Positions 3,026 through 46,461 of a stretch of DNA of 64,000 nt are shown here, piece by piece. The stretch's first letter is position 1; every line of letters begins with the position of its first letter. The notes under the pieces were generated by a model. It worked only from the letters and a program-made list of their open reading frames with translations. It searched no databases and had not been told where the DNA came from. Made by a program: the position numbers and the translations under genes. Source of the DNA: Escherichia coli (GTDB taxonomy: Bacteria; Pseudomonadota; Gammaproteobacteria; Enterobacterales; Enterobacteriaceae); assembly GCF_045037415.1 (NCBI RefSeq), contig NZ_CP173438.1, one strand, 5' to 3'.

Positions 3026-3303
3026 GATAGTATTTCTCTTTAAACAGCTTGTTAGGGGGATGTAACCGGTCTGCCCTGATGATATCACGACGCAACGTCA
3101 GCGCAACCGCCGACAAGACGGTTATCGCCAGGCGAGACTGTTTCGGATTTCTGACACTGCGTTGATATCGCCCGCCATTTTTATACAAAACCTCATGTAT
3201 GCTACGCAGAAGTTATCAAGTACCTCGTAGCGTATATACTTCTTAAACAATTGGTAACGTTTACACAGGAAAGTCATCGCGACCGGCAATAAGAGGGATA
3301 TGC

Positions 3304-4734
3304 ATGCCAGATTTTTTCTCCTTTATTAACAGCGTCCTTTGGGGTTCGGTAATGATTTACCTGCTCTTCGGCGCAGGTTGTTGGTTCACTTTTCGCACCG
3401 GATTTGTGCAGTTTCGCTACATCCGCCAGTTTGGCAAAAGTCTTAAAAATAGCATTCATCCACAGCCAGGCGGTTTAACCTCATTTCAGTCATTGTGTAC
3501 CAGTCTTGCAGCGCGCGTGGGTAGCGGCAACCTGGCCGGCGTTGCGCTGGCAATTACCGCCGGTGGACCTGGAGCCGTCTTCTGGATGTGGGTTGCCGCA
3601 TTTATCGGCATGGCGACCTCGTTTGCCGAATGTTCCCTCGCACAGCTTTATAAAGAACGTGATGCCAATGGGCAGTTTCGTGGCGGACCGGCATGGTATA
3701 TGGCGCGCGGGCTGGGGATGCGCTGGATGGGCGTTCTGTTCGCCGTCTTTTTGCTCATCGCCTACGGCATAATTTTCAGCGGAGTTCAGGCGAACGCCGT
3801 TGCGCGAGCCCTGAGTTTTTCTTTTGATTTTCCCCCGCTGGTGACAGGTATTATTCTCGCTGTCTTTGCTATGCTGGCGATCACTCGCGGTCTTCATGGC
3901 GTCGCCCGGCTCATGCAGGGGTTTGTCCCGTTGATGGCGATAATCTGGGTACTGACCAGCCTGGTGATTTGCGTAATGAATATCGGGCAACTTCCCCACG
4001 TCATTTGGTCTATTTTTGAGAGTGCTTTTGGCTGGCAGGAAGCGGCAGGCGGCGCGGCGGGATATACCTTAAGCCAGGCGATTACTAACGGTTTTCAGCG
4101 CAGTATGTTTTCCAATGAGGCGGGAATGGGGTCGACGCCAAACGCGGCAGCGGCAGCTGCGTCCTGGCCTCCGCATCCGGCAGCGCAAGGAATTGTCCAG
4201 ATGATTGGCATTTTTATCGACACCCTGGTCATCTGTACGGCAAGCGCCATGCTGATATTACTGGCGGGTAACGGCACAACCTACATGCCGCTGGAAGGTA
4301 TTCAGCTTATCCAGAAGGCGATGCGGGTGCTAATGGGTTCCTGGGGTGCGGAGTTTGTTACCCTCGTGGTTATTCTGTTTGCCTTCAGCTCCATCGTTGC
4401 CAACTACATTTATGCCGAAAACAATCTCTTCTTTTTACGCCTGAACACCCCTAAAGCGATCTGGTGTCTGCGGATCTGCACCTTCGCAACGGTCATCGGC
4501 GGCACCTTGCTAAGTCTTCCGCTGATGTGGCAACTGGCAGATATCATTATGGCCTGCATGGCTATTACCAATTTGACCGCCATATTACTGCTCTCGCCTG
4601 TGGTTCATACCATTGCCAGTGATTATCTACGCCAGCGTAAACTCGGCGTGCGCCCGGTGTTTGATCCGTTGCGTTATCCGGAGATCGGTCGCCAGCTTTC
4701 TCCGGACGCGTGGGATGATGTTTCGCAGGAGTAA
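3304..4734 (+). CDS. yaaJ: Alanine/glycine:cation symporter (AGCS) family transporter, 476 aa
   Basis: ORF 3304..4734; polytopic membrane protein with AGCS-family features; synteny. Confidence 0.9.
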   Translation: MPDFFSFINSVLWGSVMIYLLFGAGCWFTFRTGFVQFRYIRQFGKSLKNSIHPQPGGLTSFQSLCTSLAARVGSGNLAGVALAITAGGPGAVFWMWVAAFIGMATSFAECSLAQLYKERDANGQFRGGPAWYMARGLGMRWMGVLFAVFLLIAYGIIFSGVQANAVARALSFSFDFPPLVTGIILAVFAMLAITRGLHGVARLMQGFVPLMAIIWVLTSLVICVMNIGQLPHVIWSIFESAFGWQEAAGGAAGYTLSQAITNGFQRSMFSNEAGMGSTPNAAAAAASWPPHPAAQGIVQMIGIFIDTLVICTASAMLILLAGNGTTYMPLEGIQLIQKAMRVLMGSWGAEFVTLVVILFAFSSIVANYIYAENNLFFLRLNTPKAIWCLRICTFATVIGGTLLSLPLMWQLADIIMACMAITNLTAILLLSPVVHTIASDYLRQRKLGVRPVFDPLRYPEIGRQLSPDAWDDVSQE

Positions 4735-4803
4735 TCACAACTATCGATCAACTCATTCTCTTTTTTTGCTAAAGTCGGCATAAATTTCCTGCAAGGACTG
4801 GAT

Positions 4804-5580
4804 ATGCTGATTCTTATTTCACCTGCGAAAACGCTTGATTACCAAAGCCCGTTGACCACCACGCGCTATACGCTGCCGGAGCTGTTAGACAACTCCCAGC
4901 AGCTGATCCATGAAGCGCGGAAACTGACGCCCCCGCAGATTAGCTCCCTGATGCGCATCAGCGATAAACTGGCGGGTATCAACGCCGCTCGCTTTCATGA
5001 CTGGCAGCCAGATTTCACACCGGAAAATGCCCGCCAGGCAATTCTGGCGTTTAAAGGTGATGTCTACACTGGCTTGCAGGCCGAAACCTTCAGCGAAGAC
5101 GATTTCGATTTTGCCCAACAGCATTTGCGAATGCTTTCCGGCTTGTATGGCGTACTGCGCCCGCTCGATTTAATGCAGCCTTATCGTCTGGAAATGGGGA
5201 TACGTCTTGAGAATGCCCGAGGGAAAGATCTGTATCAATTCTGGGGAGATATCATCACCAACAAGCTGAACGAGGCGCTCGCAGCACAAGGCGATAATGT
5301 AGTGATAAATCTGGCGTCAGATGAGTATTTTAAATCGGTGAAGCCGAAGAAATTGAATGCCGAGATTATCAAGCCAGTGTTCCTCGATGAGAAGAACGGC
5401 AAATTTAAGATAATCAGCTTCTACGCTAAGAAAGCACGCGGTCTGATGAGTCGTTTCATTATTGAAAATCGGCTGACCAAACCAGAGCAACTAACTGGTT
5501 TTAATAGCGAAGGTTACTTCTTTGATGAAGCTTCCTCCAGCAATGGCGAACTGGTGTTTAAACGCTACGAGCAGCGTTAA
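4804..5580 (+). CDS. yaaA: Peroxide stress resistance protein YaaA (DUF328/UPF0246), 258 aa
   Basis: ORF 4804..5580; sequence [16 protein letters not shown] characteristic of YaaA; synteny. Confidence 0.92.
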
Positions 5581-5589
5581 GTTTGTAGT

Positions 5590-5615
5590 CAATGCCGGAT
5601 GGCAATCCGGCATTG
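5590..5615. terminator. 10-bp-stem hairpin (aatgccggat/atccggcatt) between convergent yaaA and yaaX; likely bidirectional terminator
   Basis: Perfect inverted repeat filling most of the 39-bp intergenic gap; no strong T-tract, so confidence moderate. Confidence 0.5.
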
Positions 5616-5619
5616 ATAT

Positions 5620-5916
5620 TTAGCGATGATGTTTGTCAGGCCCCGGACGATGATCGCCACGATGATCATTGTGCTTGTTATGGCGCGGCGATGGCGGCGG
5701 TCCATATGGGTGCCAGCGATTGCCTCGCCATTCATAATGTTGTTTCCACCAGCCGTGGTCGCGCCAGTGACCGCCATCCCAGTAATAGCCACGATTATCA
5801 CGATCGCCTATCTGTAATTTTACTGACGGGACTAGCGTAATTTCCGCAGCCTGCGCTGCCATGGGAGCGAACAGAACCAGGGAAAGTGCGAGTACGATAG
5901 ATTGCATCTTTTTCAC
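5620..5916 (-). CDS. yaaX: Small secreted His/Trp/Arg-rich protein YaaX (DUF2502), 98 aa with signal peptide
   Basis: ORF 5620..5916; N-terminal signal peptide ending AQAAE; low-complexity basic/aromatic tail; synteny downstream of thrC. Confidence 0.85.
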
Positions 5917-6073
5917 AGGTTACTCCTTTTATCATTGCCCGTTATGGGTCGATATCCGGAGATTACGCGATGAGAACGGCAGTTGTTATTCTCCGCAATC
6001 CTAATCTCTAAGTTACCGCATTTATTGAGAATTTCTCCTTTTTCCCTGTCGTTTTTCTCCATATTTTCTTCAT

Positions 6074-6107
6074 AAAAAAGCCGGGCTGCATAAAAGCAAA
6101 CCCGGCC
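6074..6107 (-). terminator. Probable thrC (thr operon) terminator: GC stem (gccggg/cccggc) followed by U-tract on the minus-strand transcript
   Basis: Inverted repeat followed by A-run on + strand (U-run in thr transcript) about 25 nt after the thrC stop. Confidence 0.5.
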
Positions 6108-6129
6108 TGATTGAGATAATGAATAGATG

Positions 6130-7416
6130 TTACTGATGATTCATCATCAATTTACGCAACGCAGCAAAATCGGCGGGCAGGTTATGCGAAAGCAAGGGTA
6201 AATCAGCACGTTCTGCCAGCTCTTTTGGCAGATCCAACGTTTCACCGAGAATCGCTTCCACGCTCTCTTTAAATTTTGCCGGATGCGCGGTGCCGAGGAA
6301 CAAGCCATATTCGCCTGGATTCAACTGGTCACGCAGCGCACGATAAGCTACGGCAGCGTGCGGCTCCGAGGTATAGCCCAGTTCTTTTAACTCACGCATT
6401 GTCTGTTGCGTGGTTTCATCATCCACGGCTGCATACCCCAGCTCTTTCAGTTGCCAGATTTTGCGGCGGAACAACTCTTCCACACGCGGCCAGTTGTTTG
6501 GCTGGCTAACATCCATCGCATTGGATAACGTCGCCTGAGTCGCTTTGGGTGACCACTGACCGCCGTGCAGGAAACGTGGCACGGTATCATTCACGTTGGT
6601 CGCAGCAATAAAACGCTTCACCGGCAGGCCAAGAGATTTCGCCAGCAGGCCCGCTGTCAAATCGCCGAAGTTACCGCTCGGCACCGAGACAACCAGCTGG
6701 TTGCGCGCTTCCTGCGGCAACTGCGCCACGGCTTCAAAGTAGTAGCAAATCTGCGCCAGCAAACGGCTGATGTTAATGGAGTTAGCAGAGTTTAGCCCCA
6801 GCGCCACTTTCAGCTCTTCATCATCAAACGCCTGCTTCACCAGCGCCTGACAGGCATCGAAATCGCCGTCGATGGCAACAGTTTCGATATTGCCGCCCAA
6901 TGTACAGAACAGTTTTTCTTGCAGTGGACTGATTTTGCCTCGTGGATAGAGGATAACCACTTTCACATTCGGTAAACCGTAGAAAGCATGAGCCACTGCC
7001 GCTCCAGTATCACCGGATGTCGCGGTCAGAATGGTCACTGGCTTATCGCCCGCAATATGGGTCAGCATTTGTGCCATAAAGCGACCGCCGAAATCTTTAA
7101 ATGCCAGCGTTGGCCCGTGGAACAATTCCAGACAACCGACATCGCTTTCAACATTGGCGACCGGAGCCGGGAAGGCAAACGCCGCACGTACGCGCTCTTC
7201 CAGGATTTCCTGCGGGATTTCATCACCAATAAACGCCGAGAGGATCTTCGCACTGCGGGTGACAAAATCCAGCTTCAGCATCTCATCAATTTCAGTCAGG
7301 CTGAATTCCGGCAGGTCGTGCGGAAAAAACAGCCCCTGATTTTTGCCTAACCCCTGGGTTACGGCTTGCGCAAAGCTGACCTGCTCATTGTGATCTTTCA
7401 GATTGTAGAGTTTCAT
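6130..7416 (-). CDS. thrC: Threonine synthase, 428 aa
   Basis: ORF 6130..7416; PLP-dependent threonine synthase sequence; last gene of thrLABC. Confidence 0.97.
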   Translation of the reverse strand: MKLYNLKDHNEQVSFAQAVTQGLGKNQGLFFPHDLPEFSLTEIDEMLKLDFVTRSAKILSAFIGDEIPQEILEERVRAAFAFPAPVANVESDVGCLELFHGPTLAFKDFGGRFMAQMLTHIAGDKPVTILTATSGDTGAAVAHAFYGLPNVKVVILYPRGKISPLQEKLFCTLGGNIETVAIDGDFDACQALVKQAFDDEELKVALGLNSANSINISRLLAQICYYFEAVAQLPQEARNQLVVSVPSGNFGDLTAGLLAKSLGLPVKRFIAATNVNDTVPRFLHGGQWSPKATQATLSNAMDVSQPNNWPRVEELFRRKIWQLKELGYAAVDDETTQQTMRELKELGYTSEPHAAVAYRALRDQLNPGEYGLFLGTAHPAKFKESVEAILGETLDLPKELAERADLPLLSHNLPADFAALRKLMMNHQ

Positions 7417-10839: not shown

Positions 10840-10880
10840 AAAAAAAAAGCCCGCACTGTCAGGTGCGGGCTTTTTTCTGT
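10840..10880 (-). promoter_or_regulatory. thr operon attenuator: intrinsic terminator hairpin (gcccgcac..gtgcgggc) with U-tract between thrL and thrA
   Basis: GC-rich inverted repeat flanked by A8 and T6 runs, positioned between leader peptide stop and thrA start. Confidence 0.85.
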
Positions 10881-10894
10881 GTTTCCTGTACGCG

Positions 10895-10963
<69 letters not shown>

Positions 10964-19044: not shown

Positions 19045-19584
<540 letters not shown>

Positions 19585-19587
19585 TTA

Positions 19588-19658
19588 GGCGTTCACGCCG
19601 CATCCGGCATTCGGTGCACGATGCCTGATGCGACGCTGACGCATCTTATCAGGCCTAC
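19588..19658. repeat. REP/BIME element (two inverted REP units) in yjjX-trpR intergenic region
   Basis: Contains cgccgcatccggca and gatgcctgatgcgacgc..atcaggcctac, matching the REP consensus seen elsewhere in the window. Confidence 0.75.
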
Positions 19659-23898: not shown

Positions 23899-24003
<105 letters not shown>

Positions 24004-35443: not shown

Positions 35444-36994
35444 ATGCCCACTTCTCATGAAAATGCACTGCAACAACGTTGCCAGCAAATTGTCACCAGC
35501 CCGGTACTTAGCCCGGAGCAGAAGCGCCATTTTCTGGCACTGGAAGCAGAAAACAATCTGCCTTACCCACAGCTGCCTGCCGAAGCCCGCCGCGCGCTGG
35601 ATGAGGGGGTAATCTGCGATATGTTTGAAGGTCATGCGCCGTACAAACCGCGCTATGTCTTACCCGATTACGCTCGTTTTCTGGCGCACGGTTCCGAATG
35701 GCTGGAGCTGGAAGGCGCGAAAGACCTTGATGACGCACTCTCTCTGCTGACCATTCTTTACCACCATGTACCGTCGGTCACATCGATGCCGGTCTACCTG
35801 GGGCAACTGGATGCGTTGTTGCAACCGTATGTTAGAATTCTAACACAAGACGAGATCGATATTCGAATAAAACGTTTCTGGCGTTACCTCGACAGAACCC
35901 TGCCAGACGCCTTTATGCATGCCAATATCGGTCCGTCTGATTCGCCCATTACCCGTGCAATATTACGTGCAGACGCAGAGCTGAAGCAGGTTTCACCGAA
36001 CCTGACCTTTATCTACGATCCTGATATCACCCCTGATGACCTGCTGCTGGAAGTGGCGAAAAACGTCTGTGAATGTAGCAAACCGCACATCGCCAACGGT
36101 CCGGTGCATGATAAAATTTTCACAAAAGGGGGCTACGGGATTGTGAGCTGTTACAACTCACTGCCGCTGGCGGGTGGTGGCAGCACGCTGGTACGCCTTA
36201 ACCTGAAAGCCATTGCCGAGCGCAGCGAATCGCTGGATGACTTCTTTACGCGCACTCTACCGCACTACTGCCAACAGCAGATCGCCATCATCGATGCGCG
36301 GTGTGAATTCCTCTATCAACAATCACACTTCTTTGAGAATAGCTTCCTGGTGAAAGAAGGGTTGATTGATCCTGAACGTTTTGTGCCGATGTTTGGCATG
36401 TATGGGCTGGCGGAAGCGGTTAACTTGCTGTGTGAAAAAGAAGGGATTGCCGCACGCTACGGTAAAGAGGCCGCCGCAAATGAAGTGGGTTATCGCATTA
36501 GCGCGCAACTGGCGGAGTTTGTCGCCAATACCCCCGTGAAATATGGCTGGCAAAAACGCGCCATGTTACACGCACAGTCGGGGATCAGTTCCGATATCGG
36601 CACCACGCCGGGCGCGCGTTTGCCATATGGTGATGAGCCAGATCCGATTACCCATCTGCAAACTGTCGCCCCGCATCATGCTTATTATTATTCCGGCATC
36701 AGCGACATTCTGACGCTCGACGAAACCATCAAACGTAATCCGCAGGCGCTGGTACAGCTTTGCCTCGGTGCCTTTAAAGCCGGAATGCGTGAATTTACCG
36801 CCAATGTCAGCGGTAACGATCTGGTTCGCGTTACCGGTTATATGGTGCGTTTGTCGGATTTAGAAAAATATCGCGCCGAAGGTTCACGCACCAACACCAC
36901 CTGGCTGGGAGAAGAAGCCGCACGCAACACTCGTATTCTGGAACGCCAGCCGCGCGTGATAAGCCATGAACAGCAGATGCGCTTTAGTCAGTAA
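35444..36994 (+). CDS. yjjI: Glycyl-radical-enzyme-like protein YjjI (DUF3029), 516 aa; substrate unknown
   Basis: ORF 35444..36994; C-terminal RVTGY motif (codons at 36827-36841) resembling glycyl radical fingerprint RVSGY; followed by overlapping radical-SAM activase gene. Confidence 0.85.
35829..35844 (-). promoter_or_regulatory. Second DeoR operator palindrome (tgttagaattctaaca; deoP1-type) located inside the yjjI coding sequence, 598 bp from the proximal operator
   Basis: Perfect 16-bp palindrome TGTTAGAATTCTAACA containing TAGAAT; spacing to proximal operator matches the known ~600 bp separation of deoP1 and deoP2. Confidence 0.7.
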
Positions 36995-37829
36995 GATTAT
37001 CCCCTTCTCCTGCGTTGACGGGCCAGGCAGTCGTCTGGCTCTGTTTTTGCAGGGCTGCAATCTGCGCTGCAAAAACTGTCACAATCCGTGGACGATGGGA
37101 CGTTGCAATGACTGTGGGGAGTGCGTGCCACAGTGTCCGCATCAGGCGTTGCAGATTGTTGACGGCAAAGTGGTGTGGAACGCTGTGGTTTGCGAGCAGT
37201 GTGATACCTGCCTGAAGAGGTGTCCGCAACATGCCACGCCAATGGCGCAATCCATGAGCGTGGACGAAGTGCTTAGCCATGTCCGCAAAGCGGTGCTGTT
37301 TATTGAAGGGATAACGGTAAGCAGCGGCGAAGCCACGACCCAACTGCCGTTTGTAGTGGCGCTGTTTACTGCTATCAAAAACGATCCGCAACTGCGCCAC
37401 CTCACCTGCCTGGTGGACAGTAACGGTATGTTGAGCGAAACCGGCTGGGAAAAATTACTCCCGGTGTGCGACGGCGCAATGCTCGATCTCAAAGCGTGGG
37501 GGAGCGAATGTCATCAGCAATTAACCGGACGCGATAATCAGCAGATTAAGCGCAGCATCTGTTTGCTGGCAGAGCGCGGTAAGCTGGCGGAACTGCGTTT
37601 GCTGGTGATCCCTGGCCAGGTGGATTATTTGCAACACATCGAAGAACTGGCGGCGTTTATCAAGGGACTCGGCGATGTTCCGGTACGCCTGAACGCGTTT
37701 CATGCCCACGGCGTGTATGGCGAGGCGCAAAGCTGGGCGAGCGCCACGCCGGAAGACGTTGAGCCGTTGGCTGATGCGTTAAAGGTGCGCGGGGTGAGCC
37801 GGTTGATATTTCCGGCGCTCTATTTGTGA
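36966..37829 (+). CDS. yjjW: Radical SAM glycyl-radical-enzyme activating protein YjjW, 287 aa
   Basis: ORF 36966..37829; CX3CX2C motif (CNLRCKNC) plus two ferredoxin-like Cys clusters ([24 protein letters not shown]); overlaps yjjI by 29 nt. Confidence 0.88.
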
Positions 37830-37831
37830 CA

Positions 37832-38335
37832 TGCCGGATACGGCCTACGGTTCGGCACAGACTTGTAGGCATGATAAGACGCGACAAGCGTCGCATCAGG
37901 CATTATGCGCCGACTGCCGGATGCGGCGTGAACGCCTTATCCGGCCTACGGTTCGGCACAGACTTGTAGGCATGATAAGACGCGTCAGCGTCGCATCAGG
38001 CATTGTGCGCCAACTGCCGGATGCGGCGTGAACGCCTTATCCGGCCTACGGTTCGGCACAGACTTGTAGGCATGATAAGACGCGTCAAGCGTCGCATCAG
38101 GCATTGTGCGCCAACTGCCGGATGCGGCGTGAACGCCTTATCCGGCCTACGGTTCGGCACAAACCTGTAGGCATGATAAGACGCGTCAAGCGTCGCATCA
38201 GGCATTGTGCGCCAACTGCCGGATGCGGCGTGAACGCCTTATCCGGCCTACGGTTCGGCACAAACCTGTAGGCATGATAAGACGCGACAAGCGTCGCATC
38301 AGGCATTATGCGCCGACTGCCGGATGCTGCCTACG
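37832..38335. repeat. BIME/REP tandem array: about 5 copies of a 100-101 bp unit, each built from two inverted REP sequences
   Basis: Direct repetition of gccggatgcggcgtgaacgccttatccggcctacggttcggcaca(g/a)ac(t/c)tgtaggcatgataagacgcg(a/t)caagcgtcgcatcaggcatt(g/a)tgcgcc with period 100-101 bp between convergent yjjW and yjjV. Confidence 0.9.
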
Positions 38336-38344
38336 AAGGGTAAA

Positions 38345-39127
38345 CTACCCACTAACGCTAAACAACGCATACGTATTATTAAGCAACACTTCGGCAATCT
38401 CATCTTCTGGTTCCGGGCGCAACTCGCAAAGCACGTCAAACACCCGCACAGCCTGTTCCGGTCGGTTAGGCTGCCCCTGAAAGCCGTTGAGCGGCATATC
38501 CGGCGCGTCGGTTTCCAGCAACAACGATGCCAGCGGTAATTTTGCGATGACATCGCGGGTTTTACTGGCGCGTGGATAGGTGATAGTACCGCCTACGCCG
38601 ATTTTGTAGCCCAGCTGTACAAACCGCTCGGCCTGTTGCAGGCTGCCGGAAAAACCGTGAACCACGCCAGTGCACGGTAAATCGTGACGTTTAAGATGCA
38701 TCGCCAGTTTGTCGTGTGTACGCCGGGAATGAAGGATCACCGGCAGATCGTAGCGTTTCGCCAGTTTCAGCTGTTCGTCGAGTAACCACTGCTGCCTCTC
38801 AAATTGCGGATCGTCGCCGAAGAGATCCAGACCGATCTCCCCCACCGCCACCACCTTCGCCGGACGCCTTTCCAGCGCCTGCTGTAGCTGATCAAGAGAC
38901 ACATCGCTATGTTTTTCCAACATCCCCGGATGCAACCCCAATGCGGCATACAGCGGTTGATATTTTTCCGCTAACGCCTGCACGCGGGCAAAATTTTCCG
39001 CCTCTGTCGCCGGAACAATGATCTTGCCTACGCCCGCTTGTGCCGCGCGTTGCAGGCTGGCCTCTTCATCGCCACTAAACGGCGGGAAATCAAAATGGCA
39101 GTGGGTATCGATAAAACGGCAAATCAA
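38345..39127 (-). CDS. yjjV: TatD-family metal-dependent DNase/hydrolase YjjV, 260 aa
   Basis: ORF 38345..39127; MICRFIDTHCHFDF TatD signature. Confidence 0.9.
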   Translation of the reverse strand: MICRFIDTHCHFDFPPFSGDEEASLQRAAQAGVGKIIVPATEAENFARVQALAEKYQPLYAALGLHPGMLEKHSDVSLDQLQQALERRPAKVVAVGEIGLDLFGDDPQFERQQWLLDEQLKLAKRYDLPVILHSRRTHDKLAMHLKRHDLPCTGVVHGFSGSLQQAERFVQLGYKIGVGGTITYPRASKTRDVIAKLPLASLLLETDAPDMPLNGFQGQPNRPEQAVRVFDVLCELRPEPEDEIAEVLLNNTYALFSVSG

Positions 39128-45939: not shown

Positions 45940-46069
45940 GTATCTGATATCTGTCGCCGCATACCGTGTTGGATGCGGCGTACACGCCTTATCTGACCGA
46001 CAAACGAATTATCCACAATCCGCTGATGGACATTTTTCCAGCAATTACACCTCTGTCGATAATTAACTA

Positions 46070-46138: not shown

Positions 46139-46225
46139 GCGAAGGTGGCGGAATTGGTAGACGCGCTAGCTTCAGGTGTTAGTGTCCTTACGGACGTGGG
46201 GGTTCAAGTCCCCCCCCTCGCACCA
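46139..46225 (+). tRNA. leuQ: tRNA-Leu (anticodon CAG), 87 nt, copy 1
   Basis: gcgaaggtggcggaattggtagacgcg...ttcaagtcccccccctcgcacca; long variable arm; CAG in anticodon loop; encoded CCA. Confidence 0.95.
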
Positions 46226-46253
46226 AAAACCACGTTGATATTGCTCGCACTGG

Positions 46254-46340
46254 GCGAAGGTGGCGGAATTGGTAGACGCGCTAGCTTCAGGTGTTAGTGT
46301 TCTTACGGACGTGGGGGTTCAAGTCCCCCCCCTCGCACCA
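46254..46340 (+). tRNA. leuP: tRNA-Leu (anticodon CAG), 87 nt, copy 2 (one-base variant: agtgttcttacgg vs agtgtccttacgg)
   Basis: Same sequence as copy 1 except a single C to T difference in the variable arm. Confidence 0.95.
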
Positions 46341-46374
46341 AACGAGGCAATATCAAAAAAAGTAAGATGACTGT

Positions 46375-46461
46375 GCGAAGGTGGCGGAATTGGTAGACGC
46401 GCTAGCTTCAGGTGTTAGTGTCCTTACGGACGTGGGGGTTCAAGTCCCCCCCCTCGCACCA
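46375..46461 (+). tRNA. leuV: tRNA-Leu (anticodon CAG), 87 nt, copy 3
   Basis: Identical to copy 1. Confidence 0.95.

Follow-up and report, generated by a model that had tools for sequence, protein, structure and literature searches.

The question raised by this locus is what the regularly repeated DNA between yjjW and yjjV is, and what it might do for the two genes that converge on it. The window, that is the whole stretch of DNA analysed, is 64,000 nucleotides long and comes from Escherichia coli. An earlier note on this DNA had placed a tandem array of paired REP sequences here, nearly filling the gap between two convergent genes. The gap and its neighbours are laid out as follows.

36966-37829, + strand: yjjW, glycyl-radical enzyme activase, 287 aa (ORF list; RefSeq annotation of 100% identical matches)
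37832-38335, no strand assigned: the whole array, classified below as BIME-2, 504 bp, period 100-101
38345-39127, - strand: yjjV, TatD-like metal-dependent hydrolase, 260 aa (ORF list; RefSeq annotation)

The placement was confirmed. The array takes up 504/515 intergenic nt, counted from stop codon to stop codon, and the gene names yjjW and yjjV were taken from RefSeq records with 100% matches to the region. The yjjW stop codon TGA occupies 37827-37829, and the array begins 2 nt further on. On the other side the yjjV stop codon (CTA on the + strand) is found at 38345-38347, 10 nt from the Y REP remnant that forms the right edge of the array. The gene neighbourhood is yjjI, yjjW, yjjV, yjjU. 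The start of yjjW overlaps the 3' end of the upstream 516-aa yjjI ORF by 29 nt (36966-36994), which fits translational coupling of a glycyl-radical enzyme with its activase.

The repeat structure was examined with two programs. Tandem Repeats Finder reported a repeat at 37841-38327 with a period of 101, 4.8 copies, 97% matches, 0% indels and a score of 897. An independent seed-and-extend repeat search found five copies with start-to-start steps of 100, 101, 101 and 101. Both bear out the initial estimate of about five tandem copies of a 100-101 bp unit. With the units in register, the substitutions between them are GACAAGC/GTCAAGC, ATTATG/ATTGTG and CAGACTT/CAAACCT. All of these had been named before, and a 1-nt deletion (GTCAGC), owing to which unit 2 is 100 nt long, can now be added to them.

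Tandem repeats are prone to misassembly, and repeated ORFs of 47-91 aa are listed across the array, either of which could mislead: the copy number might be an assembly artefact, or the ORFs might be real genes. However, at least five independent, complete genomes share a 1,501-bp stretch spanning the region at 100% identity. Since all of them have the identical sequence, an assembly error confined to one genome does not account for the five-unit length, and five units is also the commonest class in the E. coli sample described below. On both strands the ORFs are copies of each other, which would be expected of any G+C-rich tandem repeat, and no RefSeq gene is annotated under the array. Artefact and coding sequence were both ruled out on the identical independent genomes and the lack of annotated genes in the array, and we consider either one extremely improbable.

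The REPs themselves were located by a blastn-short census using Y and Z2 REP consensus sequences. Nine intact REPs were identified in the array, 5 Z2 and 4 Y, with a truncated Y REP at each end.

37832-37848, - strand: left terminal Y REP remnant, TGCCGGATACGGCCTAC (strain 30821_1#117 has an intact Y here; fold)
37865-37902, + strand: Z2 REP 1, loop GACAAGC (blastn-short to Z2 consensus; hairpin -15.2 kcal/mol)
37915-37949, - strand: Y REP 1, 100% to consensus (hairpin -21.3 kcal/mol, z = -4.7)
37966-38002, + strand: Z2 REP 2, loop GTCAGC with the 1-nt deletion (blastn-short)
38015-38049, - strand: Y REP 2 (blastn-short; exact core)
38066-38103, + strand: Z2 REP 3, loop GTCAAGC (blastn-short)
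38116-38150, - strand: Y REP 3 (blastn-short; exact core)
38167-38204, + strand: Z2 REP 4, loop GTCAAGC (blastn-short)
38217-38251, - strand: Y REP 4 (blastn-short; exact core)
38268-38305, + strand: Z2 REP 5, loop GACAAGC, the variant of Z2 REP 1 (blastn-short)
38318-38334, - strand: right terminal Y REP remnant, TGCCGGATGCTGCCTAC (compared with the intact Y there in O104:H4; fold)

All Z2 REPs are GTAG-first on the + strand and all Y REPs are GTAG-first on the - strand. The two oppositely oriented REPs that had been proposed for each unit are thus Y and Z2 in alternating orientation. Read on the - strand, the 35-nt Y REP of a unit is followed by a 12-nt linker, the 38-nt Z2 REP and a linker of 16 nt. 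Agreement with consensus is 100% for 4/4 Y REPs and 95-97% for 5/5 Z2 REPs, and the exact 34-nt Y REP core was found 4 times inside the array and 0 times elsewhere in the 64-kb window. The copy number of five holds for the Z2 REPs. For the Y REPs it is refined to four intact copies plus the two terminal remnants, each of which is 17 nt long and short of 18 nt. Because other alleles have an intact Y REP at these positions, the remnants can be recognized as Y REPs minus their central 18 nt. On either side of the missing stretch, around the inner hairpin, are short direct repeats (CGGC).

All five Z2 copies (37865-38305) carry GCATGA, versus GCCTGA in the consensus and in the first K-12 unit. At the foot of the Z2 stem the variant adds a mismatch or non-standard pair (marked 'v' in the Rfam alignment), and its presence throughout the array, as read from the sequence, suggests concerted evolution.

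Other REPs were noted in the window. A Y and Z2 pair with a 33-nt linker lies at 23900-24003, and a partial Y REP at 45971-45993 is situated just upstream of three tandem tRNA-Leu(CAG) genes (46139-46461, + strand). The threonine operon leader lies at 10840-10959 on the - strand. Since it contains both this leader and the tRNA-Leu(CAG) trio, the window spans the conventional K-12 numbering origin in reverse orientation.

REP-containing elements are divided into two classes that are relevant here. BIME-2 elements consist of inverted Z2 and Y REPs with short linkers in multiple tandem copies (Ton-Hoang 2012, PMC3333891), and their copy number differs among strains (PMC3333891). Every one of the sequence-level features of BIME-2 was found at this locus: Y plus Z2, alternating orientation, tandem arrangement, short linkers, an extragenic 3' position and a strain-variable number of units. 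The array is very probably a BIME-2 composed of head-to-tail ~101-bp Z2+Y units in the shared 3' region of yjjW and yjjV, with likely roles projected from its class. Tests able to break this classification were run; the REPs matched their consensus, unique spacers were not found, and the BIME-2 assignment held. The element, its class and its presence in K-12 are already known, and it is an ordinary BIME-2. The RefSeq MG1655 record lists no REP features at the yjjV-yjjW locus.

BIME-1 (RIB/RIP) is similar in that it, too, lies outside genes on the 3' side and pairs Y with a Z-type REP of opposite orientation. It differs in that its Z REP is Z1, that the Z1 plus Y element occurs only once at a site, and that its long L linker frequently includes an IHF site (Ton-Hoang 2012, PMC3333891), whereas the locus examined here has tandem units of Y and Z2 with short linkers and lacks the IHF core. 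The IHF core consensus WATCAANNNNTTR was found 0 times in 37800-38360 versus 3 times across the whole window. IHF binding, which the earlier note had attributed to such arrays, is a trait of the BIME-1 L linker and does not extend to a BIME-2 with 12- and 16-nt linkers and no WATCAANNNNTTR. This was the single slip in a reading whose main points are all supported.

The regular spacing of short palindromic repeats is the sole feature that the locus shares with a CRISPR array, intact or degenerate. The superficial likeness had been pointed out from the start together with the lack of unique spacers, and rightly so, as the 'spacers' are themselves repeated: the inter-repeat segments recur at 97% identity. 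Furthermore, adjacent palindromes are inverted, with the repeats alternating in orientation, no cas genes are found near the array among the neighbours yjjI, yjjW, yjjV and yjjU, and Rfam found no CRISPR direct-repeat family here. A CRISPR array was ruled out on the absence of unique spacers, the inverted palindromes and the absence of cas genes nearby, and we assign it practically no probability.

Copy number was then compared across E. coli using a query made up of only the two 700-bp flanks. 5,423 out of 5,426 complete E. coli genomes matched, 5,395 of them with the flanks joined. An evenly spaced sample of 60 rows yielded 59 loci that were scored for units and 1 disrupted locus. Flank-to-flank spans in the 59 sampled genomes form six classes ~101 bp apart.

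5 units: 19 genomes
4 units: 8 genomes (the class of K-12)
3 units: 6 genomes
2 units: 10 genomes
1 unit: 15 genomes
0 units: 1 genome

The commonest class in the sample has 5 units, and none of the sampled E. coli genomes has more than 5. A full-region query produced a similar spread of copy numbers, and alleles with 0, 1, 2, 3, 4 and 5 units were all verified in the sequences of 11 representative loci. O157 and O104:H4 have two units each. ATCC 25922 has one, in the form remnant-Z2-remnant, and in strain 30821_1#117 one intact Y REP is present and zero Z2. Strain 1442 matches the window at 100% in 1,400 bp of flanking sequence, and its locus lacks exactly one internal unit. The order of unit variants is shuffled between alleles. 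Unit number shifts by whole units, as expected if near-identical units undergo unequal homologous exchange or slippage at replication. The strain variability that had been anticipated for this array was therefore observed in the cross-genome comparison, with 0-5 units in E. coli and one fewer in strain 1442.

Two loci have acquired insertion sequences. In ETEC1718 (3789-5060), which has a five-unit array, an IS3 interrupts a 12-nt linker and is accompanied by a 3-bp target duplication, AAC. In L1PEag1 (4720-6145), whose zero-unit allele has one Y REP, an IS1397 has entered the loop of that REP. IS1397 inserts specifically into REPs (PMC1525189), and its insertion into a Y REP at this locus is independent biological support for REP identity.

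To follow the element beyond E. coli, one genome per bacterial species was scanned with a 27-nt pattern across the 16-nt linker. The pattern was found in two genomes only, both from Escherichia and both at yjjW-yjjV. Two units are present in Escherichia sp. E1V33. Escherichia sp. MOD1-EC7003, a member of a cryptic lineage, has 10.9 units with 11 Z2 REPs and 93% identity at 3258-4351, on a contig from a short-read assembly; this provisional count is twice that of the largest sampled E. coli allele. Because E1V33 and MOD1-EC7003 share the truncated left Y REP, both the element and the decay of its left end predate the split from E. coli. A search with a 51-nt junction, scored by the best place per record, suggests that the 16-nt linker is confined to yjjW-yjjV, with 1 to 6 places per genome.

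These comparisons bear on whether the array benefits the host at all. It might be selfish or neutral repeat DNA that was seeded by RAYT/TnpA-REP, expanded by slippage and tolerated, with no host function at this locus. The spread from 0 to 5 units in E. coli with all classes common, the decay of both terminal Y REPs and the tolerated IS3 and IS1397 insertions are in keeping with such an origin. So are the REP sequences, which carry the GTAG, stem mismatch and CC|T contexts needed and used by TnpA-REP in vitro (PMC3333891). TnpA-REP (RAYT) probably seeded the element, the REPs being of the type that this transposase recognizes. Against a purely neutral repeat are its age, as the left Y remnant and linker in E1V33 and MOD1-EC7003 place it before the split of E. 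coli from cryptic Escherichia, the near-identity of the internal REP cores, and the class-level evidence for a regulatory role at 3' ends. We regard neutrality as possible, at clearly less than an even chance. It is compatible with the BIME-2 assignment and differs from it solely on host benefit. Healthy lineages commonly have zero-unit or one-unit alleles, so any function is dispensable or dose-tolerant.

A second line of enquiry concerned Rfam, in which the array matches a small-RNA family, naRNA4 (RF02564). Four Y-linker-Z2 units on the - strand scored 76.6-79.1 bits, compared with a gathering score of 59.5.

37868-37946, 37969-38046, 38069-38147 and 38170-38248 (span 37868-38248), - strand: four naRNA4 matches (Rfam)

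A fifth, partial unit scored 31.5 bits, and the + strand reached 54 bits, which is under the threshold. In the alignment a Y hairpin is followed by the linker and then a Z2 hairpin (CCUGAUGCGACGC...). naRNA4 is one unit of REP325, a BIME-2 between yjdM and yjdN (PMC4550694). It could be proposed that the array encodes a cluster of naRNA4-like small RNAs, processed two-hairpin RNAs, about 77 nt long in the naRNA4 family, that would bind HU, bridge DNA cruciforms and condense the nucleoid. The four - strand units do exceed the gathering score. Because the - strand is the sense strand of yjjV, read-through from yjjV would give the naRNA4 orientation. HU binding and DNA condensation have been reported for naRNA4, and ~80% of REPs are transcribed (Qian 2015, PMC4550694). 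However, the Rfam model approximates a generic BIME-2 unit, therefore a match shows membership in the repeat family and not small-RNA function. A lone Y-Z2 BIME elsewhere in the window (19577-19658) also passes the threshold, with a match of 69.8 bits at 19578-19655. Furthermore, deletion and overexpression of REP325 were without effect on nucleoid volume, and no REP-REP contacts were seen by Hi-C (bioRxiv 10.64898/2026.03.23.713779). The senior author of the original naRNA4 work is among the authors of the 2026 preprint that reports these negative nucleoid results (bioRxiv 10.64898/2026.03.23.713779). A nucleoid-associated RNA cluster at this locus appears very unlikely.

With the array taken as a BIME-2, its probable effects can be projected from the behaviour of other members of the class. 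Individual REPs were folded as RNA, yielding -21.3 kcal/mol for Y (z -4.7) and -15.2 kcal/mol for Z2 (z -3.7). The left remnant forms only a 4-bp hairpin (-6.8 kcal/mol) and the right remnant no stable hairpin. From either stop codon it is ~40 nt to the first stable hairpin of this allele. The minimum-free-energy fold of the whole 531-nt region favours long-range Y:Z2 pairing over local hairpins. REPs were folded singly, as the whole-region fold was judged a poor guide to co-transcriptional structure. The long-range pairing makes the in vivo structure uncertain.

A promoter and terminator scan found no intrinsic-terminator-like site in the yjjW-yjjV intergenic region. Two weak promoter-like matches were present on the - strand, one in the array and one just to its right at the yjjV 3' end, and these were given no weight. 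Since the transcription units converge without intrinsic terminators, RNA from either side would carry REP hairpins, and by analogy with other REP arrays a read-through RNA from yjjW or yjjV could contain up to nine stable ones. Such hairpins would be expected to block 3'-to-5' exonucleases and to cause partial, partly Rho-dependent termination. The array may in this way act as a two-way 3'-end element for yjjW and yjjV, as demonstrated for REP325. At REP325 the upstream mRNA is stabilized, attenuation is partly Rho-dependent and a ladder of truncated transcripts is produced (Harris et al. 2026, bioRxiv 10.64898/2026.03.23.713779). In the same study REPs between convergent genes were associated with higher expression of both genes, and terminal REPs did not generally lengthen mRNA half-life, their effects being highly context-dependent (bioRxiv 10.64898/2026.03.23.713779). 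In those parts of the supplements that were accessible, nothing usable on yjjV or yjjW was found for Ton-Hoang 2012 and Qian 2015, and the 2026 preprint contained a differential-expression row for yjjW only.

In DNA, the Y REPs may serve as preferred gyrase cleavage sites by analogy with their class. Gyrase cleavage is enriched in BIME-2, mostly at Y REPs, and persists when transcription is blocked (PMC6379681). yjjV and yjjW are not named among the gyrase-rich BIME-2s in the accessible portions of that paper's text and supplements (PMC6379681).

Transcripts might also arise within the flanking genes. Intragenic sigma54 motifs have been described in K-12 for yjjW (CTGGCTCTGTTTTTGCA, with a strong ChIP signal) and yjjV (CTGGCATCGTTATTGCT) (Bonocora 2015, PMC4591121). 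In the window, the yjjW motif at 37035-37051 (+ strand) is an exact match to the K-12 CTGGCTCTGTTTTTGCA, and the yjjV motif at 38517-38533 (- strand) has one spacer change relative to the K-12 CTGGCATCGTTATTGCT. Both are sense-oriented and face the array from opposite sides. The sigma54 sites in yjjW and yjjV could feed the array with transcripts from both directions.

The importance of the locus is small beyond correct annotation, as the composition of the class, its variability, its link to gyrase and its effects on mRNA 3' ends have already been documented. For annotation, the region should not be taken for a CRISPR array or for small genes, and short-read assemblies may misjudge the length of the array. 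The length classes ~101 bp apart are a possible simple strain marker. The allelic series, with 0-5 units, decayed or intact terminal REPs and IS insertions, constitutes a natural panel for REP dose on convergent genes.

The array can be compared with three further known systems. REPIN/RAYT (TnpA-REP) systems resemble it in having inverted REP pairs with a 5' GTAG that are recognized and cut by TnpA-REP in vitro (PMC3333891). The array is not a REPtron, because no tnpA-REP/RAYT gene adjoins it; the neighbours are yjjI, yjjW, yjjV and yjjU.

The K-12 MG1655 locus contains the same element, with the same genes, left Y remnant, Y and Z2 REPs, and 16-nt and 12-nt linkers. It differs in having 4 units versus 5 and another order of unit variants. 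The right edge differs as well. In K-12 the right-hand Y REP is intact and abuts yjjV, the stop codon TAG lies within the GTAG of the REP, and YjjV ends ...NVP* (K-12 locus 3238-3306). In the window strain (38318-38347) the right Y REP is degraded, the 3' flank is a different one, the stop codon is 10 nt off, and YjjV ends ...SVSG*. The right edge of the array determines where YjjV stops and which C-terminus it has. A REP that lies no more than 15 nt from a stop codon is reported to stall ribosomes and to reduce translation (Liang et al. 2015, as summarized in PMC12306157). Because the spacing between REP and stop codon differs, the alleles could differ in yjjV output under this rule (PMC12306157). 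It is conceivable, though we think it unlikely, that unit number and the state of the terminal Y REPs together form a fast-mutating expression dial on the yjjI-yjjW pair and yjjV. The natural variation beside the stop codons, with the K-12 stop within a Y REP versus a degraded REP here, is the mildly interesting thread at this locus.

The third system is REP325 of K-12, which encodes naRNA1-6. It sits between tandem genes of one operon, whereas the yjjW-yjjV array sits between convergent genes. Its linkers are 11 and 17 nt and of other sequence, compared with 12 and 16 nt here. The termination, stabilization and HU-binding data belong to REP325, whereas the yjjW-yjjV array is known from its sequence. 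The two are otherwise built alike. Both are tandem arrays of Y-linker-Z2 units, with a period of 100 and 5.8 copies in REP325 and a period of 101 and 4.8 copies here. Their units are identical at 85/103 positions, and their REP cores are near-identical.
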